From positions 8,185-72,184 of the forward strand of contig JANLFJ010000008.1 of NCBI GenBank assembly GCA_024655825.1: 64,000 nucleotides of DNA. Reading direction: 5' to 3'. This DNA is from Peptococcaceae bacterium (GTDB lineage Bacteria; Bacillota; Peptococcia; DRI-13; PHAD01). Each line of letters opens with the position of its first letter. Within the stretch, counting starts at the first letter, position 1. The notes below the pieces were generated by a model, which had not been told where the DNA came from, did not search any database, and saw nothing but the letters and a program-made list of their open reading frames with translations. The translations under genes were made by a program, and so were the position numbers. Of the stretch, positions 12,522-64,000 are shown piece by piece.

Positions 12522-12760
12522 GCTTTCTCTTCCTCCTGAGCAGATTTGGATTCCTCTACCTCCTTGATAGACGGCCAAATCTAACCCCGGGAAAAAGAGG
12601 AGTTTGGGATGGTTTGCCTTCATGCAAGAAGCGGGAATCACAATATTTCATTTTCAGTATACATGGAGATAAAATATTTTGCAAATTTTTTATTTCTTCT
12701 TGAGAAAATAAATAAACGTTTGTATTTAATATTTCCCGGGAAAAAAGTTAAACTAAGTGT

Positions 12761-15664: not shown

Positions 15665-15731
15665 CAGTCGTTTTCAACTGTTATATTTTTATGCTGAGAG
15701 GTTTGCCCGCGGCAAGATTTTTTGTTTGGCC

Positions 15732-15759
15732 ATCGTTATGTACGCGCGAGAATAACGAC
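15732..15759 (+). promoter_or_regulatory. Mo-box/ModE-box-like palindrome upstream of the DUF364-ABC operon
   Basis: ATCGTTATGTA-CGCGCG-AGAATAACGAC, i.e. CGTTAT...ATAACG arms. Lies 23 nt before the DUF364 start. Confidence 0.45.
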
Positions 15760-15782
15760 TGACAGGAGGAGAAGGGAAAGCG

Positions 15783-18315: not shown

Positions 18316-18319
18316 GGCC

Positions 18320-21177: not shown

Positions 21178-21199
21178 ATGAAAACAGGAAGGCAAGGGG

Positions 21200-39986: not shown

Positions 39987-40006
39987 ACAAATCACCCCAC
40001 AGGACC

Positions 40007-40050
40007 ATAAGATGCCGGAAAGGGCTGCGGCCTCATTGCCGGCATCTTAT
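40007..40050 (-). other. Perfect 12-bp hairpin in the dnaK/dnaJ-like intergenic spacer
   Basis: ATAAGATGCCGG / CCGGCATCTTAT with a 20-nt loop. Confidence 0.5.
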
Positions 40051-40058
40051 GTCTCCCG

Positions 40059-43656: not shown

Positions 43657-44127
43657 TTAGCCGGGGTTTTCAAGCGCCTTAAATTTGCGGCATTCTTTGC
43701 AGTAGCCGTATACCTCGACCCGGTGTTCTACCGGCCAAAAGCCGCACTGGCTGTTTTTCAACATCTCTTCCATTTGCTTGACCGGGCAGTAAGGAAGGGG
43801 TTCGGTTTTATGGCAGAGGAGGCAGATCATGTGGTGGCGGTGGGTGTTTTCGGCAAGCAGTTTGTAGCGGGCGGCCCCTTCCAGGGTGATTTTTTCGATT
43901 ATCCCGTGTGAAACCAGGGATTCCAGGTTCCGGTAAACGGTAGAAAAACTTACGCCCGGTTCAGTTTTTCTGATCTGGTCAAAAATTTCCAGAGGCTTGT
44001 AGAGTCTGTTTTTTTCTTTTAAAAAGACTGTCAGCATCAACCTGCGGGCGGGAGTGCTTTTTAAACCTTTCATTTTTAGGGTATTCCCGGGATCGGCCTG
44101 TTTTGTTTTCATCATAACCACCATCAA
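43657..44127 (-). CDS. zur: Fur-family metalloregulator, probably Zur
   Basis: Winged helix plus HHHMIC and CxxC motifs. It is the last gene of the znu operon. Confidence 0.75.
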   Translation of the reverse strand: MMVVMMKTKQADPGNTLKMKGLKSTPARRLMLTVFLKEKNRLYKPLEIFDQIRKTEPGVSFSTVYRNLESLVSHGIIEKITLEGAARYKLLAENTHRHHMICLLCHKTEPLPYCPVKQMEEMLKNSQCGFWPVEHRVEVYGYCKECRKFKALENPG

Positions 44128-44175
44128 TTCAAAATCATATATAATTTTAACAAAAAAAGATAGACGGTTGAAAGC

Positions 44176-44979
44176 TCAAACTTTGGAAAACAAAAGGAGG
44201 ATGAGAAAATTCAAAACTGATGACATTACTATTGTCCCGCCGGGAGCCAGGTCGAGGTAATAGGAAGCGACAAGGCCTGCGGCGACGGCCAGGATTCCAA
44301 AAAAGACAGCCCAAAGGAGCGTGGCCAAAAAACCTTTGTGCAGCAGCAGGCTGGTCGCCGCGGGAATAACCATAAGGGAGGCGACGAGAAGGGCGCCGAC
44401 GAGCCGCAGGCCAAGGGCGACTATAACGGCGGCCAGGACAACGAGCAGGTGATTGAAAAAGCGGGTGTTGATTCCTGCCAGGCCGGCCCCTTCTTCATCG
44501 AAGGTGACAAAAAACAGCTCGCGGTAATAATAGGCAACCACACCGCAGGATAATGCGGCCAGGGACATGATCAGAAACAGGTCCTGCCGGGTCAGGGTGA
44601 TGATGCTGCCAAAGAGGAGGCTGGTAATACCGGCGTCGGAAGCCCTGGTGATCCCCAGCAAGATTGCGGAAGCGCCCAGGCCGGCGGCCATGATGACTGC
44701 CAGGGACAGTTCGCCGTAATAGTGGAAAAAGCCGCGCAATTTCTCCAGGAAAAGGGAAAGGAGAACGGAAAGGAGAAGAGCAGTGGGCAGGGGGCTTATC
44801 CCCCAGAGGATTCCCAGGAGTACACCGGCCAGGGAAACATGGGCCAGCGTATCTCCAACCAGGGAAAGGCGGCGCAGGACAAGGAAAAGCCCGATAGTGG
44901 GGCAAAGGGCGCCGACCATCAAACCCGCCAGGACGGCTCTGCGCATAAACTCATAATGCAAAATTTCCAAGTATACCAC
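44176..44979 (-). CDS. znuB: Zinc/manganese ABC transporter permease
   Basis: ABC-3 family hydrophobic protein. Overlaps the ATPase gene. Confidence 0.85.
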   Translation of the reverse strand: MVYLEILHYEFMRRAVLAGLMVGALCPTIGLFLVLRRLSLVGDTLAHVSLAGVLLGILWGISPLPTALLLSVLLSLFLEKLRGFFHYYGELSLAVIMAAGLGASAILLGITRASDAGITSLLFGSIITLTRQDLFLIMSLAALSCGVVAYYYRELFFVTFDEEGAGLAGINTRFFNHLLVVLAAVIVALGLRLVGALLVASLMVIPAATSLLLHKGFLATLLWAVFFGILAVAAGLVASYYLDLAPGGTIVMSSVLNFLILLLFSKV

Positions 44980-45637
44980 CGCTTTCGGGTTTTACTGCCG
45001 TTTCGATCGCCCGGCCTTTTTCTATGCGGATGACGCGCGAGGCACGCCCTAAAAAAGGGGCCGGGTCGTGGGTGACCATGACCACGGTCAGGCTTTCTTC
45101 GTGCAAAGCGAACAGCAGGCTGGTGAAATCCGCCTGTGCCTGGGCATCAAGACCTGTATACGGTTCGTCGAGTAAAAGCATATCAGGGCCTACGACCAGG
45201 GCGCGCGCAATGTTGACCCGCTGCAGCTGTCCCCCGGACAGGGAGCCGAGGAGGCACTTTCTTTTTTCCCGCAGGCCGACTTTTTCCAGGACTTTATTGA
45301 TTGCCTCCCTGCGCCCCGGAAAAACAAAAGGAAGATGCGCGGCGATAACCTCTTCTACGGTAGCCGGGAAACCCTGGTTATATGTAGAAGAGATTTGCGG
45401 GACATAACCAATTCTATTTTTTCCCCGCCCGGGCGGCGTGTTTACCCGGACAAGTCCGGCCTGGGGATTCAGCAAACCCAGCATAATTTTGAGGAGGGTG
45501 GTTTTGCCCGAACCGTTTGGCCCCGTCAAGACAAGGAATTCGCCGCGGCGGACGGTCAGGCTCAGGTTTGCCAGGACCGGCGCTCCTTTCGGGTATGAAA
45601 AAGTAATGTCCCTGATCAAAACGGCATCTTCATTCAT
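44951..45637 (-). CDS. znuC: Zinc/manganese ABC transporter ATP-binding protein
   Basis: GPNGSGKTT, LSGGQLQR and LLLDEP. Confidence 0.85.
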   Translation of the reverse strand: MNEDAVLIRDITFSYPKGAPVLANLSLTVRRGEFLVLTGPNGSGKTTLLKIMLGLLNPQAGLVRVNTPPGRGKNRIGYVPQISSTYNQGFPATVEEVIAAHLPFVFPGRREAINKVLEKVGLREKRKCLLGSLSGGQLQRVNIARALVVGPDMLLLDEPYTGLDAQAQADFTSLLFALHEESLTVVMVTHDPAPFLGRASRVIRIEKGRAIETAVKPESGGILGNFAL

Positions 45638-46536
45638 GGCGCGTACTCCAGGGCTGTTTTTAGGTTTTCCAAATTTTTTCTCATTATGCTGAAATAGTCT
45701 TCCCCTGACCGGATCTCTTTTTCCGTTAAACTCCCCAGGGGGTGGAGGACAAGGGTGCGCGCGTTTATTTCCCGGGCAATTGTTTCGGAGACTTTAGGGC
45801 TGGCGAGAGATTCAAAAAAAATGCAGGATATGCCGTTTGTTTTAGCCAGTTCGATAAGCTCGCGGAGCTTGCCGGGAGTGGGCTCCGCCTCGGCGCTCAG
45901 GCCCATAACCGGTATTTGGACCAGACCGAAGTCCCTGGCCAGGTAGGCGAAGGCGGCATGAGAGACTATGATTTGGTTTTTTTTGCATTTTGACAGGGCT
46001 TCCCGGTATTCCTGCTCCAGTGTTTGCAGTTCCTTTCTGAAAACCTCGTAATTTGCTTCATACGCCTTTTTGTTAGCGGGGTCAACCAGGATAAGTGCTT
46101 CAAGGATCGTTTTTCCTTGGTTCTCAGCGTTGATGGGTGAAAGCCAGGTATGGGGGTCGTTTTCTAGTAAATCAAGGCCTTGGCTGGCGTTGACCATTAA
46201 AGGGGCGTTTCCCTGTACGGCCTGTTTCAGCTTCTCCAGGTAAGGTTCCATGCCGGCCCCGTTGTATATGAAAATCCTGGAACGGGCAAGCTCCGCCACG
46301 AGCCTGGCGGATGGCTGAAACGAATGGGGCTCCGCGCCGGGAGGGGTTATGTTTATTACGTTTATTCCCGGCCCGCCAATCCTTTTGGTAAAATCATAAA
46401 GCGGGTAAATGCTCGTGTAAACTTTCAACTGCTGCCCGGCTGGCTGGGCTTCGCCGGGGACTAGATCCTGTCTGCAGCCTGCGGCCAGGACAACAGCCAG
46501 GGTAAGGCATAAGTAAAAAACGCGGGCTCTTTTCAT
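45634..46536 (-). CDS. znuA: Metal (Zn/Mn) ABC substrate-binding lipoprotein, TroA/ZnuA family
   Basis: Lipobox LAAGC. Cluster-9 SBP pattern (EPHSF, DPHTWLSP). Confidence 0.85.
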   Translation of the reverse strand: MKRARVFYLCLTLAVVLAAGCRQDLVPGEAQPAGQQLKVYTSIYPLYDFTKRIGGPGINVINITPPGAEPHSFQPSARLVAELARSRIFIYNGAGMEPYLEKLKQAVQGNAPLMVNASQGLDLLENDPHTWLSPINAENQGKTILEALILVDPANKKAYEANYEVFRKELQTLEQEYREALSKCKKNQIIVSHAAFAYLARDFGLVQIPVMGLSAEAEPTPGKLRELIELAKTNGISCIFFESLASPKVSETIAREINARTLVLHPLGSLTEKEIRSGEDYFSIMRKNLENLKTALEYAP

Positions 46537-51702: not shown

Positions 51703-53586
51703 TCATTCGGCTGCTTTGACGGCCACGGGCCTGCCCTGCAGGTAAGCCCAGAGGAGCCCTGCTGCGGCTATCCCCAGCCCTGCCAGTTGGAACTGCAAAG
51801 AGGGATAAACCAGGAGCAGGCCGGAGGCGAGGAGCACGGCCCTGCCGGGAAGGTTGATGTGCCCCCTGAAACAGCCGACCAGCGCGATGGAAAGCACAAA
51901 GATGGCCGCCGAAGTTAAGGCGAAGGCCTGGAGTGTTTCCGCGGCTGTTCCCTGCCAGAGCAAGGCCGGCTGGTAGACGAAGACAAACGGCACAACAAAG
52001 CCTGAAATCGCCAGCTTGAAGGCCTCAAGTCCCGTAACCATCATTTCCGATCCGGAGAGCGTTGCCGCCGCAAAAGCGGTCACGCACACCGGCGGCGTCA
52101 GGTCGGAGAATACGGCGTAGTAAAAGACGAAGAGGTGCGCGACGATGAGCGGGACGCCGAACTCACCGAGGGCGGAAGCGCCGATGGTCACGGCGATGAT
52201 GTAGGCGGCGGTGGTGGGGATCCCGGCTCCCAGGAGAGCGACGGCCACGAAGACCATCAAGAGGACGAGGAAGAGAATGCCGCCGGAGAAGTGGATCACC
52301 ATGCTGCTGAAGGAAAGAGCGGCGCCGGTGCGGGTCATGCAGGTGACGATGATCCCCGCGCTGGCCAGGGCCACGGCGATCTGGGCGGCGGTGACGGCGC
52401 TTTCCGACAAGGACTCCCACAGGGACTTAAAATTGAAGCGCACTCTTGGGTTGATGACCCCCAGGACGGCGGTGAGCAATACCACGTAAAAAGCAGACTT
52501 GGTCGGCGAATAGCCGGCGATGAGGAGGTAGGCGATCAGGAGAAAAGGCACCACCATGTAGCTCCGGCTCAAGATTGAGCGCCAGTCGGGCTTTTCCCGG
52601 TCCGGGTCAGGCTGCAGGTTCAATCTCACGGCCTCGAAGTGGACCATCGTTAAAACGCCTAAGTAGTAGAGGACTGCGGGCAGGAAGGCGATTTTGATAA
52701 TCTGGGAGTACGGCACCGCCGTCAGTTCCGACATGACGAAGGCCCCCACGCCCATGATGGGCGGCATGATCTGCCCGCCGGTGGAGGCTGCGGCTTCGAT
52801 GGCGGCCGCTGTTTTCGGCCTGTAGCCGATTTTTTTCATCATGGGGATGGTTACGCTGCCGGTGGCGTAGACGTTGGCCACCGTACTGCCGCTCACGGTG
52901 CCGTAAAGGGCGCTGGCCAGCACGGCTATTTTGGCGGGACCGCCTCTTAGGCCGCCGGCCAGGGCGTGAGCCAGTTCGATCAGGTAGTCGCCGACGCCGC
53001 AGCGGATCATGAATACGGCGAAGACGACATAAATGTAAAGCACGTTGGCGGAAAGGCCGGTTAAGAAGCCGTACATCCCTTCGTCTACGAAGAGGTACAT
53101 CATTTCAATGATGCGTTCGAACGAGTATGACTTGAAATGAAGGATGCCGGGCAGGTACTGGGCGAAGGCCAGGTATGTTAAAAAGATGACGGGCATGAGG
53201 GCAAACCACTTGGAAATGAGCCGGCGGCATGATTCTATGGCCAGCAGCACCATGATGGTTCCGAAGATGACTTCAGCCGGCAGGACTTCCGTAACCCCCT
53301 GGTAACGGAAATTGATCCGCTCGGCGTTCAGGTAGCTGTAAGCGCTGCCGGCAAAGGCAGCCGCGGCGAGCAGCCAATCGTACCAGGGGATTTTGTTCGC
53401 GGGCGATTTTTTGGTGGCGGGGTACAGGAAAAAGACAAGCGGTATCAAAAACAAGAGGTGGAGGGATCGCATTTCCCTGGGTTCAAGGACTCCGAACCCC
53501 GAAGTGTATAAATGAAACAATGTGGCAATTACTGCGTACAGTGTGACGGCTATTCCTGCAGGACCTTTGAGTTGGCGCGTGTTCAT
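51703..53586 (-). CDS. TRAP transporter fused permease (TAXI-type system)
   Basis: 627 aa and highly hydrophobic (fused DctQ/DctM-like). Adjacent to the TAXI receptor gene. Confidence 0.85.
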   Translation of the reverse strand: MNTRQLKGPAGIAVTLYAVIATLFHLYTSGFGVLEPREMRSLHLLFLIPLVFFLYPATKKSPANKIPWYDWLLAAAAFAGSAYSYLNAERINFRYQGVTEVLPAEVIFGTIMVLLAIESCRRLISKWFALMPVIFLTYLAFAQYLPGILHFKSYSFERIIEMMYLFVDEGMYGFLTGLSANVLYIYVVFAVFMIRCGVGDYLIELAHALAGGLRGGPAKIAVLASALYGTVSGSTVANVYATGSVTIPMMKKIGYRPKTAAAIEAAASTGGQIMPPIMGVGAFVMSELTAVPYSQIIKIAFLPAVLYYLGVLTMVHFEAVRLNLQPDPDREKPDWRSILSRSYMVVPFLLIAYLLIAGYSPTKSAFYVVLLTAVLGVINPRVRFNFKSLWESLSESAVTAAQIAVALASAGIIVTCMTRTGAALSFSSMVIHFSGGILFLVLLMVFVAVALLGAGIPTTAAYIIAVTIGASALGEFGVPLIVAHLFVFYYAVFSDLTPPVCVTAFAAATLSGSEMMVTGLEAFKLAISGFVVPFVFVYQPALLWQGTAAETLQAFALTSAAIFVLSIALVGCFRGHINLPGRAVLLASGLLLVYPSLQFQLAGLGIAAAGLLWAYLQGRPVAVKAAE

Positions 53587-53762: not shown

Positions 53763-54800
53763 TTACTTGATGTAGCCTTTTTCCTTGTAGTATTTTTCTG
53801 CGCCGGGATGGAGCGGGGCGCCGATCTTATCCCAGGCCTTGCTCGGATCAAACACCTTGAAAGCGGGATGGATGGCTTTTGTCTCCTCTAGGTTGTCGCA
53901 GATGGTCTTGGTGATGGTGTAAACGATGTCATCGGGCACGTTCTTGTTGACAATGACGCAGTTGCTCATCGTGGCGGTTTTGACATCCTTGTCGCCGTTG
54001 ACCGCTTTCGGGTAAGTGCCGGCGGGAATGACACCGCTGCCGAGATTGAACTTGCTTAAGGCCTGCAGGAGGTCATCGGGCCATTCCAGGATCCGCATCG
54101 GCCGGCCGATGGAGGCCTCGGTAACGGCTGCTCCGGGCAGGCCGAGGAAAGTAAAGTAGACATCGACGTTCTTGTCCTTGAACTGGGTGGCCTGGTCGGC
54201 GTATCCGGCATGGAATATCTTGGAACCGTTTGCTTTAAGTTTATCATATGATGTTCCGTAAAAAGCCATAACTTTTCTGAAGACCCATTCGTCGGAACTC
54301 CCGACGACGGATACGGTAATCCTGATCGGTTTCTTGCTGGTGAGGACGTCTTTAATGGTCTTGTAAGGGCTGTCATCTGCCACCAGGAAATGGAAGTAAC
54401 TGATGCCCAGGTCGGTGGCAATCCCGCGGACGTTGGTGTATTTTTCGGTGTAGGGGTCTTCACCGGCAGCGGCCGCAGCGACGAGGGGCGGGAGTCCCCA
54501 GCCGATTTCGCAGTCGCCCTTGTTAACCAGGGGTACGTTCTGAACCCCGCCGCCAGGGATGACTTTCAGGCTAATCCCCGTGTTCTTTTTGGTCATCAGT
54601 TCACCAAAACCGCCGGCCTGGGAATACCAGCCGCCGCCCATCGAACCGGCCGTCCAGGTGAGAGTTGTTGTTTTAGGCGCTTCTTTAGGCTTTTCCGCAG
54701 GCTTTTCAGCGGGTTTTTGCGCGCAGGCGGCCACAAACACCAGCAGCGCGATGCAAAGCAGGGCAATCCACATTAGATTTCGACGTTTCAATACATTCAC
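53763..54800 (-). CDS. TAXI-family TRAP transporter solute receptor
   Basis: Signal peptide/lipobox VAAC. Family-typical GGGWY and PLHPGAEKYYKE motifs. Confidence 0.85.
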   Translation of the reverse strand: MNVLKRRNLMWIALLCIALLVFVAACAQKPAEKPAEKPKEAPKTTTLTWTAGSMGGGWYSQAGGFGELMTKKNTGISLKVIPGGGVQNVPLVNKGDCEIGWGLPPLVAAAAAGEDPYTEKYTNVRGIATDLGISYFHFLVADDSPYKTIKDVLTSKKPIRITVSVVGSSDEWVFRKVMAFYGTSYDKLKANGSKIFHAGYADQATQFKDKNVDVYFTFLGLPGAAVTEASIGRPMRILEWPDDLLQALSKFNLGSGVIPAGTYPKAVNGDKDVKTATMSNCVIVNKNVPDDIVYTITKTICDNLEETKAIHPAFKVFDPSKAWDKIGAPLHPGAEKYYKEKGYIK

Positions 54801-55077: not shown

Positions 55078-55809
55078 TTAAGTGTTCAGGCAAGTTTTCC
55101 AGTACTTGTTGACATCCTCCACCAGGCTGTCGATGTGGGCGAGCATGGCCGCTTCCGCCTCGTCGGCGTCGCGCCTGCGAAGGGCGTCAAGAATGCGGCG
55201 GTGAGAAACCATGTACTCCGAATTGATTTTTTTCCTGATATATTCAAAAGCCTGGGACTGCTGGCCCATGATGGCCAGCTGGTAGTACATCAGTTCCAGA
55301 ATGGGGTTTCTCGAAGCGCGGGCGATGGCTTTGTGAAATTCCAGGTCGTGGAGAGTTATCGGCTTGTCTTCTTTGTAGCTGTTTTCCTGGAGAAAAAGGG
55401 TCTCTTCCATGGCGGCAATTTCGGTTGTGGTTATCCGCTGGGCGGCCAGCCTGGCCGTCCCCCTTTCCACCGTGCGGCGGGCTTCCAGCACGGCCAAAAA
55501 ATCCTCCAGGAGCTTGGGGTCGATGTATTTGTTGAGGTTGCTCTGGTAGAACTCCATGTTTTTTAACTGCTTGTTCAGTATAATAGCCCTGAGGCCCTTT
55601 TCGGTGATGACCCGGCCGCGGTATTTTTCCTTTTGCAGATAGCCAAGGCTTTCCAGTTTATTAAGTATCCTGCCTATTGTTGCGGAACTCGTTTCTATTT
55701 GTTCTTCAGCCAGCCGGTTTACAATGTGCCAGGAACCAATAGGGTCCGAAGCCTCGCTGATCATTTCCAGGATAAGGAGCTCTTTTTCGTCCAGGGTCTT
55801 TACATTCAT
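55078..55809 (-). CDS. FCD-domain (FadR C-terminal type) regulator with a non-GntR winged-helix N-terminus
   Basis: C-terminal FCD pattern (LEARRTVE...FHKAIARASRN...HRRILDALRRRD). The N-terminus lacks the GntR signature and looks like an HTH_12/NrpR-type wHTH. Confidence 0.7.
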   Translation of the reverse strand: MNVKTLDEKELLILEMISEASDPIGSWHIVNRLAEEQIETSSATIGRILNKLESLGYLQKEKYRGRVITEKGLRAIILNKQLKNMEFYQSNLNKYIDPKLLEDFLAVLEARRTVERGTARLAAQRITTTEIAAMEETLFLQENSYKEDKPITLHDLEFHKAIARASRNPILELMYYQLAIMGQQSQAFEYIRKKINSEYMVSHRRILDALRRRDADEAEAAMLAHIDSLVEDVNKYWKTCLNT

Positions 55810-55874: not shown

Positions 55875-57059
55875 TCAAGCGCAGGAGTACTGCAGACAGC
55901 GGTCGGGCGACAGTTCGCTTATGTCGTGAGGCAGCGTTTCCGAATCGAGCATAAGGGCGATCAGTTTGCCGGTAATAGGGGCCAGGGCTATCCCGTCGCC
56001 TTCATGCCCTGCTGCCATGTAAAAGCCGGGGTACCTGGAAACAGGGCCGATAAAGGGTTTGCCGTCGTCGGAGGCCGGACGCAGCCCGGCAAAGGTGCGG
56101 ATTATGTGCACGTTTTTAAGAATCGGGAAAAAGCGGGCGGCTTCCCCTATTACGAGCCGGATGGCCTCGCAGCTCGTGGTGTTGTCATACCCGGCGTATT
56201 CCCTGGTGCCGCCAATAAAATAGTTGCCTTCACCGGTCTGGGAAACCGCCAGCCCGATGCCCAGGTCGTTCAAGATCTGCCTGCGGCTTTTGGCCAGGGA
56301 GGGATAGAGTTTCATGACAATATAGTCGGCGTTCCAGAAATTCGTTTTGCCAAGGCGGGGGATCTGCTCCGTCACTGCGATTTGCCCGCGCTTCGGCCGG
56401 ATAGGGATGTCAATGCCCAGCTGGCCGGCCAATTCGCCCGCCCATGCACCTGCTGCGTTGATGACCGATTCGGAGTAAAAACGCTGGCCGTCTTCGCAAA
56501 CGACCTTCCAGTTATAATCGCTGATAAACTCAATTGATTGCACTTTGGAACCCTTTTTGATTTTAAGGCCCCTGTCTTGAGCCGCGGCGGCAAACGCCCT
56601 CATGGTTTTGAGGGGGTTTACCTGGGAGTCCAGGGGGCTGTATGTAGATGCCAGGACGTGGGGGCTTACGTGGGGATGAAGTTTTTTCATTTCCTTTTTG
56701 TCCAGGAAAGTTACATCCAGGCCGCAGCTGTGCTGCTGGTTGACGAAATCCTCCATGATGGGCAGCTGTTCCTGGGTTTCGATGAAAATCATCCCACCTG
56801 CGTTTTCCAGGTCGATTTCCAGGGGGAGGTCTTTTTCCAGGCGGCGATAATGCTCAAGGCTCTCTAAGGCCAGGGTGAGGAGTATGCCGGGCCTTTTGGA
56901 CTGCAGGAGGATCTGGTCGTCACATGCTCCCGAAGCGCCCGAGCCGAACTCTTTTTTTTCGATAAGCAGAACTTTCCTTGGGCTGGCGGTCAGGTAATAG
57001 GCAGTTGAAAGGCCGATTATGCCGCCGCCGACTATTATTGCGTCATATTTTTCTTGCAT
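55875..57059 (-). CDS. FAD-dependent oxidoreductase, DAO family (beta-subunit type of proline/sarcosine/opine/D-hydroxyproline dehydrogenases)
   Basis: YDAIIVGGGIIGLSTAYYL dinucleotide fold. Start at the ATG after GGAGGT. Confidence 0.85.
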   Translation of the reverse strand: MQEKYDAIIVGGGIIGLSTAYYLTASPRKVLLIEKKEFGSGASGACDDQILLQSKRPGILLTLALESLEHYRRLEKDLPLEIDLENAGGMIFIETQEQLPIMEDFVNQQHSCGLDVTFLDKKEMKKLHPHVSPHVLASTYSPLDSQVNPLKTMRAFAAAAQDRGLKIKKGSKVQSIEFISDYNWKVVCEDGQRFYSESVINAAGAWAGELAGQLGIDIPIRPKRGQIAVTEQIPRLGKTNFWNADYIVMKLYPSLAKSRRQILNDLGIGLAVSQTGEGNYFIGGTREYAGYDNTTSCEAIRLVIGEAARFFPILKNVHIIRTFAGLRPASDDGKPFIGPVSRYPGFYMAAGHEGDGIALAPITGKLIALMLDSETLPHDISELSPDRCLQYSCA

Positions 57060-57365
57060 GCTGATACCTCCGGGCTTTCCTTTCGCCTGCTCATCATATA
57101 GTGAGGAGCTGTTATGAATAGCATACCATAAATTTTGAAAAGAAAACAAGGTATTTTTAAAAAAATTTCATGGTAAATTTAATTTTAACAATGTAAATAA
57201 TTGTCAACTCAGCACTTTTGAATAATTTAATATAAGCAATTTGCAAAAAAATTTATAATTAATAAAGATGTTTATTGACCCCGCGGCTGGAAAAAAGATA
57301 TAATGGACTAAAAGAGCTGCTCACCCCATGATGAGCAGTAATGGTGGGGAAGGAGGAAATGCCTG

Positions 57366-57635
57366 ATGCAGGAAGGACCCAAAAATTACATTTGCCGCTG
57401 CGAAGAAGTAACGAGGGAAGAAATTGAAGAGGCCATCAAAAACGGCGCCACGACAATGAATGAAGTTAAACGCTGGTCCAGGGCGGGCATGGGATTATGC
57501 CAGGGAAAAATCTGTTCCCGGAACGTGTCCCGTATTGTCAGCGAAGCGACCGGCAAAAAGCCGGAGGAGGTGCTGCCGTCCACTGTTCGCCAGCCGGTTC
57601 GCCCGGTAAGGATAGATGTAATCACTAAGGAATAA
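57366..57635 (+). CDS. BFD-like [2Fe-2S]-binding small protein
   Basis: CRCEEVT...GLCQGKIC four-Cys pattern of the Fer2_BFD family. Confidence 0.75.
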   Translation: MQEGPKNYICRCEEVTREEIEEAIKNGATTMNEVKRWSRAGMGLCQGKICSRNVSRIVSEATGKKPEEVLPSTVRQPVRPVRIDVITKE

Positions 57636-57669
57636 GGAAAGATGACAATCTATTGTGGAGGTGTTGGGA

Positions 57670-58557
57670 GTGCAGGACTGGGGCCGATTGATAACGGCAA
57701 TGGCTACGCCGTTTGACAGGGAAGGCAAGCTTAACTTGGCCGGGGCCGCTGAACTGGCGAAAAGGCTTGCCGGCGAGGGAACCACGGCAGTGGTACTGGC
57801 GGGTACCACGGGAGAAAGCCCTACCCTGTCGGACGATGAAAAACTCGCTCTATTTGAAACGGTAAAAAGGAATGTGGGTATCCCGGTAATAGCCAACGTG
57901 GGGAGCAACAACACGGAAAAGTCCGCCCTGCTGGCCCAAAAGGCGAAAGAAACGGGCATCGACGGGATTATGGCGGTTGTTCCCTATTACAATAAGCCCA
58001 ACCGGGAGGGGATTTACCAGCATTTTAAAACGATTGCCCAGGCCGCTCAGTTACCGCTGATGGTTTACAACGTACCCGGGCGAACCGCACTGAACCTGGA
58101 CGCGGAAACAATTCTAAGAATTGCCAAAATACCTTTTGTCCATTCCATCAAGGAAGCCACTGAAGACTTTGGCAAGATTTCCAGGGTTATAAGGGAAGCA
58201 CCTCCCCACTTCAAGGTGTATACGGGCGAAGACCACCTTACTTTGCCAATCCTGGCTATCGGCGGGTACGGGGTGGTGAGCGTGGCCGCGCATGTCGCGG
58301 GAAGGCAAATGAAAGCAATGATCGAGAACTACCTGGCGGGACGGGTGGAGAAAGCAAAAGAACTGCACCTCGCTCTTACGCCGGTTTACGAGAGCCTTTT
58401 TTTGACGGCAAATCCCATTCCCTTAAAAAGCGCTCTAAGGCTGTGCGGTTTTGACGCGGGTTCCCTGCGGCTCCCGCTGGTGGAAGCGTCCGGGGAAATA
58501 GTGGCCAGGCTGAAAGCGGATCTGCAAAATTTATCGCTGGTTGAAGGGAAGGATTAA
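57670..58557 (+). CDS. dapA: 4-hydroxy-tetrahydrodipicolinate synthase (DHDPS/NAL family; residues point to a true DapA)
   Basis: GTTGES, PYYNKP, YNVPGRT (retains the Arg that binds aspartate semialdehyde in E. coli DapA), Schiff-base Lys in SIKEAT, NPIPLK and LRLPL. GTG start after GGAGGT. Confidence 0.75.
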   Translation: MQDWGRLITAMATPFDREGKLNLAGAAELAKRLAGEGTTAVVLAGTTGESPTLSDDEKLALFETVKRNVGIPVIANVGSNNTEKSALLAQKAKETGIDGIMAVVPYYNKPNREGIYQHFKTIAQAAQLPLMVYNVPGRTALNLDAETILRIAKIPFVHSIKEATEDFGKISRVIREAPPHFKVYTGEDHLTLPILAIGGYGVVSVAAHVAGRQMKAMIENYLAGRVEKAKELHLALTPVYESLFLTANPIPLKSALRLCGFDAGSLRLPLVEASGEIVARLKADLQNLSLVEGKD

Positions 58558-58558
58558 G

Positions 58559-58894
58559 ATGGGACGGGTTGAACATCACATTATCCTTGGGGACGCCCCG
58601 GAGCGAAAAAAAGTGACGATCTTTGTCGACGGCGACCCGCTGGAAGCTTACGAAGGAGAAGTGATTGCGGCGGCGCTGTGGGCCCACGGCAAGAAAACAC
58701 TGCGTTATACAAAAAAGGACAACAGGCCGAGGGGAATATACTGCGGCATCGGGCGCTGCACCGACTGCGTGATGATTGTTGACGGCGTTCCCAATGTGCG
58801 CACCTGCGTTACACCGGTGCGCGACGGGATGGTTATTCAAACCCAGAAAGGGTTGGGCCAGTGGAAAGAAGGTGGCGGCAGTGAAAACGACTGA
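58559..58894 (+). CDS. [2Fe-2S]-binding protein (Fer2_4 type, as in the N-terminus of sarcosine oxidase alpha / HcnA / OoxA)
   Basis: CGIGRCTDCVMIVDGVPNVRTC Cys cluster. Starts 1 nt after the dapA stop. Confidence 0.7.
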   Translation: MGRVEHHIILGDAPERKKVTIFVDGDPLEAYEGEVIAAALWAHGKKTLRYTKKDNRPRGIYCGIGRCTDCVMIVDGVPNVRTCVTPVRDGMVIQTQKGLGQWKEGGGSEND

Positions 58895-59993
58895 GATAGT
58901 GGTTGCCGGCGGCGGGCCGGCAGGGCTGTCGGCGGCGATAGAAGGGGCGCGCCTTGGCGCCAAGGTGCTCGTCATTGATGAGAATTCGCGGCCCGGCGGG
59001 CAGCTTTTTAAGCAAATCCATAAGTTTTTCGGTTCCCGTGAGCACCAGGCCGGCGTGCGGGGACTGGACATCGGCCAAAAACTGCTGGAGCAGACGGAAG
59101 CGCTGGGCATTGAAGTATGGCTGAACTCCGAGGCTGTCGGCATAGACAAAGATAAAAAGGTCTGGGTTATACAAAACGGTAAAAATTCGCTGGAGGTGAG
59201 AGGAGAAAGGATAATCCTTTCCACCGGCGCGGTCGAGAACTCTCTCACCTTTCCGGGATGGACATTGCCCGGGGTGATGGGGGCAGGAGCGGCGCAGACG
59301 ATGATCAACATCCACCGGGTTAAGCCCGGGAAAAGGATCCTGATGATCGGTTCGGGAAACGTTGGAGTTATTGTTTCTTACCAGCTGATGCAAGCCGGCG
59401 CCGAGGTCGTCGCCATCATCGAGGCCGCTCCCCGGCTGGGCGGATATGGAGTCCATACGGCCAAAGTCCGCAGGGCGGGGGTGCCATTTTACACTTCCCA
59501 TACCGTCAAGCGGGCCCTGGGCAAAGATAAGGTCGAAGGAGCCGAGATAGTGGCCCTTGATGATAAATGGAACCCTGTTCCCGGCACGGAGAAAACGCTT
59601 GATGTTGATACCATCTGCGTGGCCACCGGTCTTACGCCTCTTACCGAACTGGCCTGGTTTTTGGGCTGCCGTTTCCATTACATTCCATCGCTGGGCGGGT
59701 TTGTGCCTGATCACAACGAGTTTATGGAGACGAACATTCCGGGGATTTATGTCGCCGGGGACATCGCCGGGGTGGAGGAAGCCAGCACGGCAATGGAAGA
59801 AGGGCGCCTGGCGGGGATCGGAGCTGCCGCTTCCCTGGGATACCTGGAGCCTGGCGCTTTAAAAGAAGAGGCGCAAAAGGTATGGGACAGGCTGAATTCC
59901 TTGAGAAGCGGGCCGTTTGGCGAAGGGCGCCGCAAAGCCAAAGAAGTCATACTGCATCGGGAAGGGGAGATCGTCAATGCCGGGGCATTCTGA
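58881..59993 (+). CDS. FAD/NAD(P)-binding pyridine-nucleotide-disulfide-type oxidoreductase (alpha-subunit type)
   Basis: Two dinucleotide folds (VVAGGGPAGLSAA and MIGSGNVGV) and GDIAG. GTG start overlapping the upstream gene. Confidence 0.8.
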   Translation: MKTTEIVVAGGGPAGLSAAIEGARLGAKVLVIDENSRPGGQLFKQIHKFFGSREHQAGVRGLDIGQKLLEQTEALGIEVWLNSEAVGIDKDKKVWVIQNGKNSLEVRGERIILSTGAVENSLTFPGWTLPGVMGAGAAQTMINIHRVKPGKRILMIGSGNVGVIVSYQLMQAGAEVVAIIEAAPRLGGYGVHTAKVRRAGVPFYTSHTVKRALGKDKVEGAEIVALDDKWNPVPGTEKTLDVDTICVATGLTPLTELAWFLGCRFHYIPSLGGFVPDHNEFMETNIPGIYVAGDIAGVEEASTAMEEGRLAGIGAAASLGYLEPGALKEEAQKVWDRLNSLRSGPFGEGRRKAKEVILHREGEIVNAGAF

Positions 59994-60492
59994 GCATGCG
60001 GGCGTTAAACTGTCAGGCGCTCCTAACCGTGAAGAACTTAGAAACAGTCCGGGCTATCCCCCGGAGGGACTTTGGGGGAAAGGGCCCCTGGCCTTTATCG
60101 AATGCGTGGAAGAAATACCGTGCAATCCTTGCGAGACCTCCTGCCCGCAGGGAGCAATAAAAGTGGGGAAACCCATCACCAACTTGCCGGTGCTTGACGG
60201 GAACAAGTGCCTGGGCTGCGGCGCGTGCATCGCGGCCTGCCCCGGTTTGGCCATCTACGTGAAGGATTACACCTTTAGCGAGACGGAAGCGTTGATCACC
60301 TTTCCATTTGAGTACTGGCCCCTTCCTGAAAAAGGGCGGCAGGTCGTGCTGGTGGACGAAATGGGTGAACCTGTTTGCCGCGGCGAGGTGTTAAGGGTGG
60401 TCGATATTCCTAAAAATAACCGGACGCCGTTGATAACGGTCAAGTATCCAAAGGAATTTTTCGAGGAAGTAAAGTCCATGCAAAGACTGTAA
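59977..60492 (+). CDS. 4Fe-4S ferredoxin-domain protein
   Basis: CNPCETSCP and CLGCGACIAACP cluster motifs. Overlaps the upstream stop. Confidence 0.7.
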   Translation: MPGHSEHAGVKLSGAPNREELRNSPGYPPEGLWGKGPLAFIECVEEIPCNPCETSCPQGAIKVGKPITNLPVLDGNKCLGCGACIAACPGLAIYVKDYTFSETEALITFPFEYWPLPEKGRQVVLVDEMGEPVCRGEVLRVVDIPKNNRTPLITVKYPKEFFEEVKSMQRL

Positions 60493-60538
60493 AACAGTTT
60501 ATACCCAAAGATAAGAAGCAGCGAGGGAGGAAGAAGGT

Positions 60539-61564
60539 ATGAGGAAATACAGGGTAGGTGTGGTCGGAGCCATGGGGGCCGTGGGTACCCAGATGCTGGC
60601 CACGCTCGAAAAGTCCAGTTTGCCTGTAGAACAGGTTGTGCCGCTGGATGTTAAAGAGAACGAAGGCAAAACGGTAGTTTTCCGCGGGACGCGGCTGACA
60701 GTCAAAACTGCGGAGAAAGGGGCATTTAAAGGCCTTGACGTTGCCCTGTTCTCGGCGGGAGAAAAAGCCAGCGAGGTCCTGTCGCCCATTGCCGTTGAAG
60801 AAGGCGCGGTGGTGATCGACAACAGCAACGCCTTTCGCCTGGACCCAGACGTGCCGCTGGTCGTGCCGGAAGTCAATCCCGGCGCCGCCAGGGAACACCG
60901 CGGCCTGATTGCCAACCCCAACTGTTCGACTATTCAAATGGTTGTGGCCTTGAAGCCGCTGCATGACAGGTTTAAAATCAAAAGAGTGGTTGTCGCCACG
61001 TACCAGGCGGTCTCCGGAACCGGGCTGCCGGCTATTGAGGAGATAAACAGGCAGTTTAGGGAATATGTGGAAGGCAGGGAATTGACTTGCCGGGTGTACC
61101 CGTATCCCATCGCCTTCAATGCCCTCCCGCAGATTGATATATTCATGGAAAACGGCTACAGCAAAGAGGAAATGAAAATGTACAACGAAACAAAAAAGAT
61201 TATGGGAGATAACGACATCCAGGTCACGGCCACGGCGGTCAGGATACCGGTGATTCGCTGCCATTCCGAAGCTGTCAACGTGGAAACGGAAAAACCCCTG
61301 CCGGAAATAGAGGAAATAAGGGCGATCCTTTCTTCCGCCCCCGGCGTCAAGGTGTTGGACGACCCGCAGAACAAGGTCTACCCCATGCCCTATTATTGCC
61401 GGGACACCGACAAGGTCTTTGTCGGAAGGCTCCGCAAGGACTTTACCATCGCCAACGGCCTTAACATGTGGGTGGTGGCGGACAACCTGCTGAAAGGAGC
61501 GGCCCTCAATGCCGTGCAGATAGCCGAGATCCTGGTGAAAAACGACTGGCTAAAGAGGCGGTAA
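60539..61564 (+). CDS. asd: Aspartate-semialdehyde dehydrogenase, copy 1
   Basis: VVGAMGAVG, catalytic NPNCSTI, and the RCHSEAV His motif. 341 aa. Confidence 0.9.
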   Translation: MRKYRVGVVGAMGAVGTQMLATLEKSSLPVEQVVPLDVKENEGKTVVFRGTRLTVKTAEKGAFKGLDVALFSAGEKASEVLSPIAVEEGAVVIDNSNAFRLDPDVPLVVPEVNPGAAREHRGLIANPNCSTIQMVVALKPLHDRFKIKRVVVATYQAVSGTGLPAIEEINRQFREYVEGRELTCRVYPYPIAFNALPQIDIFMENGYSKEEMKMYNETKKIMGDNDIQVTATAVRIPVIRCHSEAVNVETEKPLPEIEEIRAILSSAPGVKVLDDPQNKVYPMPYYCRDTDKVFVGRLRKDFTIANGLNMWVVADNLLKGAALNAVQIAEILVKNDWLKRR

Positions 61565-61608: not shown

Positions 61609-61647
61609 AGACTAAAAATCAGATATGCAATTACCTCACTCACTGGA

Positions 61648-61824
61648 GTGGGGTAGGGGTCGCGAAGGCCAAGAGTATTCCGGGGAGCGTGGTGGCTGTG
61701 AACCGGACGAAAGGGGCATTCGCCGAAGTGCGGCGTGCAACCGGTGCGCCGTGCTGGGACTGTATTTAACAAATACAGGACTGTCACCCGGCTTAGCCCA
61801 GGGCCGGGTGGAGCACTATCTCAC
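61648..61824 (+). promoter_or_regulatory. Lysine riboswitch (L-box)
   Basis: Conserved L-box blocks in the right order: AGAGTA, GGGGAGC, GCCGAAG, CTGGGAC, ACTGTCAC and GTGGAGCACTATC. P1 pairs GTGGGGTAGGGGTC with GAGCACTATCTCAC. The 77-aa track ORF at this position is spurious. Confidence 0.8.
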
Positions 61825-61952
61825 GGAGGGCGAAGAGAGGGGGGTATCTATAGCTTGAAGCAGCTAGGGGTAACGCCTCTGGCTGTATTTTATTTCTCGT
61901 GACTACTCATCGATGAGCTGCAAAAAATACTGTTTTTTGTTTGACTTTTTTA

Positions 61953-61980: not shown

Positions 61981-62066
61981 ACGTACTATATAGTCTACCG
62001 AACGTAGATAAATGTACACCACACGCAGACAAAATTGTATGCAAATTTACAGAAAGGGTGTTGGCG

Positions 62067-63107
62067 ATGAAACAGTACAGAGTGGCGGTAGTGGGACTGG
62101 GCGCTGTGGGAAGAGAGATGATTGCTACCCTCGAAAAGTCTGCGCTGCCTATATGTGAACTCGTACCCCTGGTGAGAAGGAATGAAGGGGAAAAGATCGG
62201 TTTCCGGGGTGAAACGTGCGTTTCCAGGCTGGTTCAGAAAGGTTGCTTCAAGGATATAGATTTTGCCCTGTTTTCCGCCGGCGAGCAGGCGAGCCGCGAA
62301 CTGGCCCCGCTTGCCCTGGATGAAGGGGCGGTGGTCGTCGATAACAGCAACGCCTTTAGGATGGAACCGGACGTCCCCCTGGTTGTGCCGGAAGTCAATC
62401 CCCTTGAGGCCAAAAAACACCGCGGCCTGATTGCCAATCCAAACTGTTCGACCATCCAGATGGTTGTGGCGTTGAAACCGCTTCACGACCGCTTCAAGAT
62501 AAAAAGGGTCGTTGTTTCCACTTACCAGTCCGTTTCCGGAACCGGCCTGCAGGCCATCGACGAGTTGAACGGGCAGGTCCAGGCCTATGTCGCCGGCCGC
62601 GAACTGGCTCGCGAGGTGTATCCCCACCAGATCGCCTTCAATGTGCTGCCGCACATCGATGTTTTCATGGAAAACGGCTATACCAAAGAAGAGATGAAGA
62701 TGCATAACGAGACCAGGAAGATCCTGGGCGACAGCGACATCCGGGTTACGGCCACAACAGTGCGCGTTCCCGTGGTCCGCTGCCATTCGGAAGCGGTCAA
62801 TATCGAAACGGAAAAGCCGCTGCCGGACGTGGAAGAGATAAGGAATATACTGGCCAATGCGCCGGGGGTCGTTGTTGTCGATGATGTGGCCAACAATCTC
62901 TACCCGCTGGCTATTGACTGCCAGTACAGGTACGAAGTTTTCGTGGGCCGCATCCGCAAAGACTACACCGTGGCCAACGGTCTCAACATGTGGATAGTGG
63001 CGGACAACCTGCTGAAAGGCGCCGCTCTCAATGCCGTGCAGATTGTGGAGCTCCTGGTTGCCAGGAACTGGGCGGCGGCGGGACGCCAAAAGATGTTAGC
63101 CGTGTAA
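62067..63107 (+). CDS. asd: Aspartate-semialdehyde dehydrogenase, copy 2
   Basis: Same motifs as copy 1 (NPNCSTI, RCHSEAV). Start at MKQYRV after AAAGGGTG. Confidence 0.9.
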   Translation: MKQYRVAVVGLGAVGREMIATLEKSALPICELVPLVRRNEGEKIGFRGETCVSRLVQKGCFKDIDFALFSAGEQASRELAPLALDEGAVVVDNSNAFRMEPDVPLVVPEVNPLEAKKHRGLIANPNCSTIQMVVALKPLHDRFKIKRVVVSTYQSVSGTGLQAIDELNGQVQAYVAGRELAREVYPHQIAFNVLPHIDVFMENGYTKEEMKMHNETRKILGDSDIRVTATTVRVPVVRCHSEAVNIETEKPLPDVEEIRNILANAPGVVVVDDVANNLYPLAIDCQYRYEVFVGRIRKDYTVANGLNMWIVADNLLKGAALNAVQIVELLVARNWAAAGRQKMLAV

Positions 63108-63211: not shown

Positions 63212-64000
63212 ATGCCCATACTGGTGCAAAAGTTTGGCGGCACTTCAGTGAATACACCGCAAAAGCGTGATCAGGTCCTGGAAAAGGTTACTGCGGCGAA
63301 GGATAAAGGCTACGATGTGGTGGTGGTCGTTTCCGCCATGGGCAGGAAAGGAGAGCCGTACGCCACCGATACTTTTCTGGGCTTGCTGGAAGAAGTGGGA
63401 CCTGGTTCGAGTCCAAGGACGAAAGACCTGCTGGCTTCATGCGGCGAGATAATTTCCACCTGTCTTGTCGCTCACGCCCTTGAACAAAAGGGATACAAGG
63501 CCTGTCCCCTGACAGGGTTCCAGGCCGGGATCGGCACAAATGACAGTTTTACCAATGCTGAAATCATGAAAGTTAACGCCGGGAGGATACATAAAGAGCT
63601 GTCCGGCGGGAAAATAGCGGTTGTCGCAGGGTTCCAAGGCATTACGGAAGACGGCGATATAACCACCCTGGGCAGGGGCGGCAGCGACACGACGGCGCTC
63701 GCTTTGGGCGGCGCCCTGGGAGCGGAAATGGTGGAAATCTATACCGATGTGCCGGGGATTGCGTTTACCGACCCGCGCTTGCTTCCGGAAGCCCCCTACC
63801 TTAAGAGCATAGATTTTTACCCCATGCATATCCTGGCCCGTGCCGGGGCTAAAGTGATCCATCCCCGCGCGGTCAAGGCGGCCATTAATTTCAAGATGCC
63901 TTTTTTGGTGAAATCGACTTTCACCGACGAACCGGGTACCCTGATCGGCCAGAAAGGAGAGAATTTTGGCGGGCTGTACGGGATAGCCCTGACTAAAAAT
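63212..64000 (+). CDS. lysC: Aspartate kinase, N-terminal 263 codons (runs off the window); not in the ORF track
   Basis: Manual translation is open to the end of the window: MPILVQKFGGTSV...VVVVVSAMG...LGRGGSDTTA...EIYTDVPG. RBS AAAGGAG. Confidence 0.9.
   Translation, partial: MPILVQKFGGTSVNTPQKRDQVLEKVTAAKDKGYDVVVVVSAMGRKGEPYATDTFLGLLEEVGPGSSPRTKDLLASCGEIISTCLVAHALEQKGYKACPLTGFQAGIGTNDSFTNAEIMKVNAGRIHKELSGGKIAVVAGFQGITEDGDITTLGRGGSDTTALALGGALGAEMVEIYTDVPGIAFTDPRLLPEAPYLKSIDFYPMHILARAGAKVIHPRAVKAAINFKMPFLVKSTFTDEPGTLIGQKGENFGGLYGIALTKN

Follow-up and report, generated by a model that had tools for sequence, protein, structure and literature searches.

A heteromeric flavin/Fe-S dehydrogenase gene cluster wired to canonical DapA and Asd in a Peptococcaceae bacterium, and its possible part in dipicolinate metabolism

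Why canonical-looking genes of the lysine branch, dapA and asd, should be packed among genes for a flavin and iron-sulphur enzyme of the type known from proline dehydrogenases and opine oxidases is the question raised by a locus of a Peptococcaceae bacterium (GenBank assembly GCA_024655825.1, contig JANLFJ010000008.1). The locus lies in a stretch of 64,000 nucleotides, referred to here as the window (positions 8,185 to 72,184 of the forward strand), for which an earlier note had proposed three readings: a hydroxyproline-like catabolic island, a spore dipicolinate synthase or DapB substitute, and dipicolinate breakdown. Our analysis identified a gene cluster for a heteromeric DAO-type dehydrogenase wired to canonical enzymes of the lysine branch, an arrangement that recurs in 55 species-level genomes, far beyond chance, and that fits no described system found. 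In agreement with what the earlier note had supposed, literature searches on an anaerobic dipicolinate pathway, on catabolic use of aspartate-semialdehyde dehydrogenase (Asd) and aspartokinase, and on heteromeric D-hydroxyproline dehydrogenases in anaerobes returned no description of this cluster.

The open reading frame (ORF) listing and profile searches gave the gene order TRAP–TAXI–FCD–DAO on the minus strand, diverging from BFD–DapA–Fer2_4–alpha–Fer4–Asd1 on the plus strand. All genes named beforehand were found at their places, including the first asd copy 46 nt behind Fer4 and the divergent DAO gene followed by the FCD and TAXI-TRAP genes. The unit is wider than first delimited, since it extends to position 51703, and it adjoins a separate lysine-riboswitch unit formed by a second asd (asd2) and an aspartokinase gene. 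Judged by sequence, the flavoenzyme belongs to the family of the D-hydroxyproline and proline dehydrogenases, and both dehydrogenase activity and assembly of its subunits are predicted. Among solved structures, the beta (DAO) subunit is closest to glycine oxidases and to 1y56_B, which is the beta subunit of the L-proline dehydrogenase from P. horikoshii, while the alpha subunit is related to the N-terminal half of SoxA and has thioredoxin reductases, SoxA and 1y56_A as solved relatives. The BFD protein corresponds to the A3 domain of the sarcosine-oxidase alpha subunit, encoded as its own polypeptide, and the families PF07992, PF13510 and PF04324/PF17806 fall on successive segments of TIGR01372 (soxA). 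Besides, the Fer4 subunit has eight Cys residues that are invariant among 20 homologs. The row of subunit genes in the window is interrupted by dapA, with the beta gene pointing the opposite way, and in most relatives the beta, importer, FCD, BFD, dapA, Fer2_4, alpha and Fer4 genes are all co-directional. Comparison with solved structures gave no clue to a ligand for the TAXI protein, whose nearest matches were TAXI proteins at 76-98 bits only, or for the FCD regulator, which had distant matches only.

The window DapA is a genuine dihydrodipicolinate synthase (DHDPS) by profile score, active-site residues and phylogeny. It exceeded the TIGR00674 equivalog cutoff (314.1 vs. 206.15 bits), every top match among solved structures was a DHDPS (best 279-290 bits; 5ktl, 3hij, 1xky), and its translation contains the GTTGES, PYYNKP, YNVPGRT and IKEA motifs for which it had been called canonical-looking. 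In an alignment of 58 DHDPS-family proteins (E. coli numbering), residues T44, T45, Y107, Y133, R138, K161 and N248 were kept in the window DapA and in all 40 aligned in-operon homologs. The phylogenetic tree grouped the in-operon DapAs, that of the window among them, in one monophyletic clade inside the true DapA radiation, so that the subfamily check proposed earlier, by hidden Markov model and phylogeny, assigned the protein to true DapA and not to the LhpC/deaminase clade. Homologs with the same gene context in other metagenome-assembled genomes (MAGs) were 63-70% identical. Both Asd copies likewise scored above the equivalog cutoffs of NF011456 and TIGR01296 (459.5 and 434 bits for asd1; 442 and 415 bits for asd2); the closest relatives have a cluster-linked Asd that is an ortholog of asd1 (75-76% identity), and the window aspartokinase is orthologous to the in-operon aspartokinases of loci L008 and L009 (60-61% identity). 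The cluster aspartokinases have a DapG-like catalytic domain. In those of 343-393 aa linked to clusters (e.g., L001 15513-16664 and L021 1300-2481) model matches covered the catalytic ~280 residues only and not the C-terminal ~100, and searches with Pfam, NCBIfam and PDB sequences detected no ACT domains in the cluster aspartokinases. Altogether, the equivalog models, conserved residues and trees point to bona fide DapA, Asd and aspartokinase, which would make aspartate semialdehyde and the DapA product, 4-hydroxy-tetrahydrodipicolinate (HTPA), real intermediates.

A Fer4 alignment was scanned against one genome per GTDB species, and the 80 loci obtained were annotated by BLAST with references derived from the window; 57 carried the same beta-type complex, 55 of them with enough flanking sequence for gene counts. 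Within these 55 loci an importer was always present (SSF symporter in 39, TAXI/TRAP in 19), an ortholog of the FCD regulator was found in 49, and DapA was located within 9.5 kb in 53, in 40 of them exactly between BFD and Fer2_4, while Asd was found in 38 and aspartokinase in 36. In L008 and in the Spirochaete clusters, TAXI is found together with permeases homologous to the window TRAP protein. Conservation of the gene order, suggested as a check across Peptococcaceae, reaches beyond that family, as the carriers span Clostridia, Tissierellia, Peptococcaceae, Spirochaetes and Ca. Vecturithrix, with 17 Spirochaete species and two Ca. Vecturithrix/KSB3 genomes among the 57. Named-species carriers, mostly cultured isolates, include Geosporobacter ferrireducens IRF9, G. 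subterraneus, Anaerosolibacter carboniphilus DSM 103526, Marinisporobacter balticus DSM 102940, Anaerovirgula multivorans SCA, Muriventricola aceti and Pleomorphochaeta sp. DL1XJH-081, and MAG carriers belong to Sedimentibacter, Tissierellia, Peptococcaceae, Thermosediminibacterales and Christensenellales. The Vecturithrix DapA branches within the clostridial part of the in-operon clade, a placement as would be expected for a module moving as a unit. Moreover, many Firmicute carriers have an ordinary asd-dapA-dapB-dapH set or a lysine-riboswitch aspartokinase next door, with only 38%, ~50% and 28% identity to the cluster copies, and therefore the cluster genes are extra paralogs.

Among the closest relatives, the intergenic regions that separate the divergent operons have an inverted repeat in common, with the core CTCAYC-N4-GRTGAG, which occurs twice in the window: a perfect copy (O2) downstream of the -10 box and ahead of the BFD start, and a copy with one mismatch (O1) before DAO. 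In 1.26 Mb of related loci 42 perfect cores were counted against 0.3 expected, and conserved flanks extend the palindrome to ~24 bp. Most of the listed cores lie just upstream of DAO or Asd/aspartokinase operons; measured to the nearest labelled start, the distance is 8-90 nt for most cores and at most 350 nt. Spirochaete loci have a variant of the motif before the (Asd-)DAO operon, before the TAXI operon and in the divergent dapA-dapB(ACT)/FCD promoter region, where the FCD gene heads a dapB-dapA-dapL-lysA row. Sigma-A-type promoters with at least 9 of 12 matches were found in 27 of 41 operator regions (11 or 12 matches in 24), and in 23 of those 27 a distance of 11-15 nt separates the end of the -10 hexamer from the operator core downstream of it. 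The FCD protein is presumed to be the repressor of a single regulon in which dapA, asd and, in relatives, aspartokinase would be controlled together with the importer and the flavin genes, and the promoter/operator design suggests a tightly repressed, strongly inducible vegetative operon and not a sigma-E/K sporulation gene. The lysine riboswitch of the window (103.8 bits vs. a threshold of 30) is outside the flavin operon, upstream of asd2; none was found inside the clusters of nine related loci examined, for which reason lysine control of the cluster proper was dropped. It seems that an ancestral asd-aspartokinase pair moved from the FCD regulon to lysine control in the window lineage and that the second asd stayed in the operon.

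The neighbours left unlabelled in the 57 loci were clustered and their Pfam labels verified. DapB was the commonest extra neighbour (25 of 57 loci), followed by DapL, LysA, meso-diaminopimelate dehydrogenase, DapH, a flavin-reductase-like protein and aldehyde:ferredoxin oxidoreductase (AOR). A tungsten-type AOR is linked to the cluster in four loci that have neither Asd nor aspartokinase (L033 1464-3305, L035 1646-3541, L045 1840-3660 and L013 10501-12306), and the linkage was seen in 4 of the 15 loci without Asd/aspartokinase vs. 2 of the 42 with them. In L033, L035 and L045 the AOR gene diverges from DAO, occupying the slot of Asd-aspartokinase in Geosporobacter and relatives, and operator cores are found at this slot (two each in L033 and L045, one in L035); in L013 it stands directly after Fer4, and no operator core was found there. 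Asd plus aspartokinase, and likewise AOR, interconvert aspartate semialdehyde and aspartate, and in cells AOR normally serves to oxidise aldehydes. The displacement of Asd/aspartokinase by AOR fits aldehyde oxidation, that is, the catabolic direction.

Other features of these neighbourhoods were also recorded. The small flavin-reductase-like protein (PF01613, a weak match) is near the cluster in five loci; in L026 (10639-11139) it comes directly after Fer4, and in L033 it is past AOR and on the other strand. Two Spirochaete loci (L047 10514-11728 and L057 3566-4786) encode a DapB fused to aspartokinase-type ACT_9/ACT_7 domains, the neighbouring aspartokinase being a bare catalytic domain. Of the adjacent pair of DapA proteins in Spirochaetes, only one has lysine-site residues like those of E. 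coli (H53, H56, E84). In the Tissierellia locus L018 (10643-13398) there are two dapB copies, one with a meso-diaminopimelate dehydrogenase gene directly after the cluster and the second behind a lysine riboswitch (12399-12549) with an ordinary aspartokinase.

Taken together, these observations are best fitted by an inducible module for uptake, catabolism or salvage centred on the DapA product; which compound is imported, what the flavoenzyme acts on and which way the flux runs is what we infer from here on. With a probability of about 0.38, we propose a repressor-controlled, importer-linked regulon whose flavin/Fe-S complex may act on HTPA or 2,3-dihydrodipicolinate, the substrate most plausibly being dipicolinate. 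Dipicolinate would be taken up by the TAXI-TRAP system in the window and by the SSF symporter in most relatives, and would relieve repression by the FCD protein bound at CTCAYC-N4-GRTGAG. The flavoenzyme would then reduce it at C2 to 1,2- or 2,3-dihydrodipicolinate, with electrons entering via the ferredoxin-like and NAD(P)-binding subunits and Fer4 as a plausible entry point, and hydration would give HTPA. By analogy, 1,2-dihydrodipicolinate, a tautomer of the 2,3-compound, would resemble D-hydroxyproline and proline as a cyclic secondary amine with an alpha-H and an alpha-carboxylate, so that the dipicolinate/dihydrodipicolinate couple would be a DAO-type reaction with hydride exchange at C2 with the beta flavin. 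HTPA may be split by DapA into pyruvate and aspartate semialdehyde, the latter being converted to aspartate by Asd and aspartokinase or, in some genomes, by AOR. Such a route would be redox-neutral, with two reducing equivalents entering at the ring and two leaving at the oxidation of aspartate semialdehyde, at the ferredoxin level in the AOR variant. Alternatively, the DapB encoded next door (in the Spirochaete regulon together with dapL and lysA) would provide a strongly downhill exit from HTPA to tetrahydrodipicolinate and salvage into lysine and diaminopimelate. If dipicolinate is what the importer takes up, every gene would have a job; the higher frequency of DapA than of Asd among the loci would fit an intermediate at the level of HTPA better than one at the level of aspartate semialdehyde.

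Anaerobic fermentation of dipicolinate to acetate, propionate, NH3 and CO2 was described in 1990, and its enzymes are still unknown (PMC9826295). In the aerobic dip cluster, control is exerted by DipR, a repressor of the GntR/FadR type that recognises dipicolinate (PMC11472048). That our cluster is the genetic basis of anaerobic dipicolinate use, through reductive dearomatisation, DapA and Asd/aspartokinase (or AOR) running backwards, DapB as a side exit and a FadR-type repressor/operator pair, is a more tentative claim, and we consider it doubtful. Of the three readings put forward earlier, dipicolinate breakdown is the most compatible with the comparative data, including the AOR replacement, but it is unproven and thermodynamically tight.

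Several points weigh against the dipicolinate route. To our knowledge, reversal of DapA has never been shown, and NikD, which acts at the level of picolinate, runs towards the aromatic product. The same holds for SpoVF and EtfA, the precedents known to us for the dipicolinate/dihydrodipicolinate couple (10.1101/2022.02.25.481979), and the electron-transfer module is common to hydroxyproline dehydrogenase clusters, where it is oxidative. A rough estimate from formation data gives ~+25 to +45 kJ/mol (+/-20) for the conversion of dipicolinate and 3 H2O to pyruvate and aspartate, and a ring-reduction potential of ~-0.55 to -0.65 V, which would need ferredoxin-level electrons and low product pools; on the same estimate an extra ATP at aspartokinase would be hard to afford. 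The acetate, propionate, CO2 and NH3 pattern of the 1990 coculture fits pyruvate plus aspartate, and it fits nicotinate-type routes equally, so that it is not diagnostic. In addition, the cluster-type aspartokinase and asd2 of the window are under a lysine riboswitch, which is a biosynthetic signature, and therefore at least those two genes are biosynthetic here.

Alternative explanations must be weighed on the same evidence. A different imported amino or imino acid may be oxidised to HTPA or directly to aspartate semialdehyde, with DapA and Asd/aspartokinase (or AOR) disposing of the product, an explanation that we regard as somewhat unlikely and for which hydroxylated or saturated piperidine-2,6-dicarboxylate, 2,4-diaminobutyrate and azetidine-2-carboxylate-type compounds are candidate substrates. 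It would agree with a module that is closest to oxidative amino-acid dehydrogenases (PMC4575208) and common to the hydroxyproline clusters. The importer, the repressor and AOR all suit catabolism, and the downstream steps would all be thermodynamically easy. However, no abundant natural compound is known to us from which a single oxidation would yield HTPA, and aspartate semialdehyde as the product would leave the near-universal DapA unexplained. Diaminopimelate was set aside as a substrate, since it would require a reverse-DapB step that should be energetically very unfavourable, and DAO-type oxidation of tetrahydrodipicolinate would give no 4-hydroxy-2-oxo acid that DapA could cleave. Running the other way, dedicated aspartokinase, Asd and DapA could make HTPA for oxidation by the complex to dipicolinate, as a functional counterpart of the B. 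subtilis spoVF-asd-dapG-dapA locus, with the importer serving salvage and the FCD protein sensing the end product. Oxidation would be the natural direction both thermodynamically and mechanistically, as the precedents of SpoVF, EtfA and NikD indicate, the DapG-like catalytic domain of the aspartokinases comes without feedback ACT domains, and many carriers are from clostridial and Tissierellia lineages whose sporeformers are without dpaAB. A dipicolinate-forming oxidoreductase, not identified, has also been postulated for Gottschalkia (10.1101/2022.02.25.481979). Nevertheless, such an anaerobic dipicolinate synthase appears unlikely, and the corresponding proposal of the earlier note is weakened: at least 19 of the 57 carriers, that is one third, are Spirochaetes or Ca. 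Vecturithrix, and therefore the function is not sporulation; every cluster has an importer; the promoters are of consensus sigma-A type with a repressor operator and not of sigma-E/K type; and AOR would need to act as a carboxylate reductase.

A variant of lysine biosynthesis, in which the complex replaces DapB as a ferredoxin-linked HTPA reductase or makes diaminopimelate from tetrahydrodipicolinate, would account for the frequent lysine genes beside the cluster (DapB, and in other loci DapL, LysA, DapH or Ddh), for the Spirochaete operator before dapA-dapB(ACT) and the FCD gene at the head of the lysine row, and for the riboswitch unit next to the window cluster. We nevertheless judge it quite improbable, given that ordinary dapB and complete downstream branches coexist with in-cluster paralogs that are extra to them, that none of the examined clusters has a lysine riboswitch and that the universal importer would have no explanation; the idea of a DapB substitute, also raised beforehand, was set aside because an ordinary dapB adjoins the cluster in many carriers. 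Least probable by far is a hydroxyproline- or proline-type island whose DapA-family member would be a deaminase like LhpC, which acts on Pyr4H2C. The homology of the complex to D-hydroxyproline dehydrogenase-type enzymes, for which a heteromeric flavin family of the Lhp type has been described (PMC4575208), speaks for it, and the scan did recover sister clusters of this kind: in 12 loci and a common metagenomic locus the Fer2_4/alpha/Fer4(-BFD) module is 50-60% identical to that of the window. Several of these loci have a different beta subunit, a proline-racemase-family epimerase and a DHDPS paralog, L006 also having an aldehyde dehydrogenase. Hydroxyproline-type loci are L006 (7560-14378) and the Bipolaricaulota loci L056, L061, L063, L066, L075 and L082, which contain the epimerase, Fer2_4, alpha, a Fer4-BFD fusion or separate BFD, and DAO, with an LhpC-like DHDPS in L006 and a DHDPS paralog in L061 and L063. 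By gene content the sister family is the known Lhp-type pathway, and its distribution suggests that a 4Fe-4S-containing D-hydroxyproline dehydrogenase is common in anaerobes. In contrast to the window DapA, the LhpC-like paralog of the sister clusters scores 192.8 bits with TIGR00674, under the cutoff of 206, and such paralogs have S, T or Q in place of R138 and T, D or F in place of N248. Moreover, tblastn found no match in the window for a proline-racemase-family epimerase or for an aldehyde dehydrogenase (Aldedh) such as the alpha-ketoglutarate-semialdehyde dehydrogenase of Lhp clusters, the beta subunits of the two cluster types are only 29% identical, and Asd and aspartokinase would have no role; the hydroxyproline-like island was accordingly abandoned.

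Among known systems, the D-hydroxyproline dehydrogenase LhpBEF, the opine dehydrogenase OdhABC/OoxAB, the HCN synthase HcnABC and the archaeal dye-linked L-proline dehydrogenase are like the window complex in having a DAO beta subunit, a SoxA-related Pyr_redox_2 alpha subunit, a Fer2_4 protein and a BFD-type element (PMC4575208), and LhpBEF, which works with LhpC, resembles it in having a partner gene of the DHDPS family, although that of the window is a true DapA and not a deaminase. Unlike LhpBEF, OdhABC, HcnABC and the archaeal proline dehydrogenase, the window type has a split alpha subunit with BFD separate, an extra 2x[4Fe-4S] subunit and a beta subunit of a distinct clade, and relative to LhpBEF-type systems it adds Asd/aspartokinase or AOR, an importer and an FCD repressor, its carriers being from mostly anaerobic lineages (mainly uncultured MAGs). 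The hydroxyproline clusters of L006 and Bipolaricaulota are alike in Fer2_4, alpha, Fer4 and BFD but are without Asd and aspartokinase. The B. subtilis spoVFA-spoVFB-asd-dapG-dapA locus is like the window in combining oxidoreductase genes with asd, dapA and a DapG-like aspartokinase, and in a chemistry presumed to take place on the DapA product. In contrast to that locus, the cluster has sigma-A-type promoters with a repressor operator and an importer and is also found in non-sporeformers, and a profile search found neither of the DpaA and DpaB Pfam families on the cluster proteins. The dip cluster of Alcaligenes faecalis with its regulator DipR (PMC11472048) resembles the regulon described here in a GntR/FadR-type repressor, a short palindrome and several transcription units, the regulators being likened by description; it differs in an O2-dependent monooxygenase start (3-hydroxydipicolinate route) and in the operator GTATAC, against CTCAYC-N4-GRTGAG in the window, and DapA and Asd are not reported for it.

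Of the dry weight of spores, 5-15% is dipicolinate, and in sediments, soils, guts and digesters the compound represents a considerable store of carbon and nitrogen (PMC11472048); the genes known for its use are those of the aerobic pathway only. Which oxidoreductase makes dipicolinate in clostridial sporeformers without DpaAB is also an open question (10.1101/2022.02.25.481979). The cluster is a testable candidate for both questions, anaerobic use and synthesis without DpaAB, and it offers cultured carriers, a defined operator, a binding protein and an enzyme of five subunits. Whatever the substrate, paralogs of canonical DapA, Asd and aspartokinase have been recruited to an inducible, importer-linked regulon, with a non-orthologous swap of Asd/aspartokinase for a tungsten-type aldehyde oxidoreductase. 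There is also an impact on annotation, as the DapA, Asd and aspartokinase of the cluster are currently all labelled lysine biosynthesis.

The coordinates of the window features are collected in Table 1.

Table 1. Features of the flavin/Fe-S cluster and the adjoining lysine-riboswitch unit, in window positions.
Feature	Position	Strand	Evidence or remark
Fused TRAP membrane component (DctM/Q type)	51703-53586	-	PF06808 DctM; closes the divergent operon
TAXI-family TRAP solute-binding protein (importer)	53763-54800	-	TIGR02122 200.5 bits vs. cutoff 84; PF16868
FCD-domain (GntR/FadR-type) regulator with HTH_12 winged-helix N-terminus	55078-55809	-	PF07729 88.6 bits; PF08461
Beta subunit, DAO-family FAD dehydrogenase	55875-57059 (longest call to 57149)	-	PF01266 244 bits
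Operator-like palindrome O1 (CTCATCATATAGTGAG, 1 mismatch)	57090-57105		31 nt upstream of DAO start
Sigma-A-type promoter, TTGACC-18-TATAAT, 11/12	57275-57304	+	serves the BFD-dapA-...-asd1 operon
Operator O2, extended palindrome GCTG-CTCACC-CCAT-GATGAG-CAGT	57316-57339		core 57320-57335, 0 mismatches
BFD-like [2Fe-2S] protein (BFD/SO_alpha_A3)	57366-57635	+	PF17806 62 bits; PF04324 57.6 bits
Canonical DapA (4-hydroxy-tetrahydrodipicolinate synthase)	57670-58557 (alternative starts 57655, 57700)	+	TIGR00674 314.1 bits
Fer2_4 [2Fe-2S] subunit (gamma-like)	58559-58894	+	PF13510 108.8 bits
Alpha subunit, Pyr_redox_2, FAD/NAD(P)-binding	58872-59993	+	PF07992 137.7 bits; TIGR01372 residues 168-487
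Ferredoxin-like 2x[4Fe-4S] subunit (Fer4), two CxxCxxCxxxCP-type motifs and conserved C-terminal domain	59977-60492	+	Fer4 family matches
asd1, aspartate-semialdehyde dehydrogenase, last operon gene	60539-61564	+	NF011456 459.5 bits vs. cutoff 223
Lysine riboswitch aptamer; terminator-like hairpin	61646-61826; 61860-61886	+	RF00168 103.8 bits
asd2	62058-63107	+	behind riboswitch; 69% identical to asd1
Aspartokinase	63212-64000, runs past window end	+	383 aa at full length; without canonical ACT domains

Spacings were computed with starts supported by a ribosome-binding site. The plus-strand genes run head to tail as had been noted, but gaps of 20 nt or less throughout are obtained only with the longest DapA ORF, the distance from BFD to DapA being 19-64 nt according to the start chosen and 34 nt with the supported start at 57670. 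DapA is separated from Fer2_4 by 1 nt, Fer2_4 and alpha overlap by 23 nt, and alpha and Fer4 by 17 nt. No strong terminator-like site was found within 57366-61564, the sole match being a weak one with five pairs, three of them G-C (58985-59000). The public gene call for DAO starts at TTG 57149, whereas ATG 57059 is the likelier start, as it has a GGAGG ribosome-binding site, fits the lengths of the homologs (391-407 aa) and is favoured because the longer call would bury the operator O1 inside the ORF. Within the window there was no match for dapB, dapH, dapL, lysA, ddh, AOR, the epimerase or a second dapA. Elsewhere in the window, reading of N-terminal sequences only suggested, in order, SbcCD-like genes (5667-10003), a run for molybdate/tungstate transport and molybdopterin cofactor (15335-23040), ClpB with DnaK/DnaJ-like genes (36383-41948) and a Zur/zinc ABC set (43657-46536).

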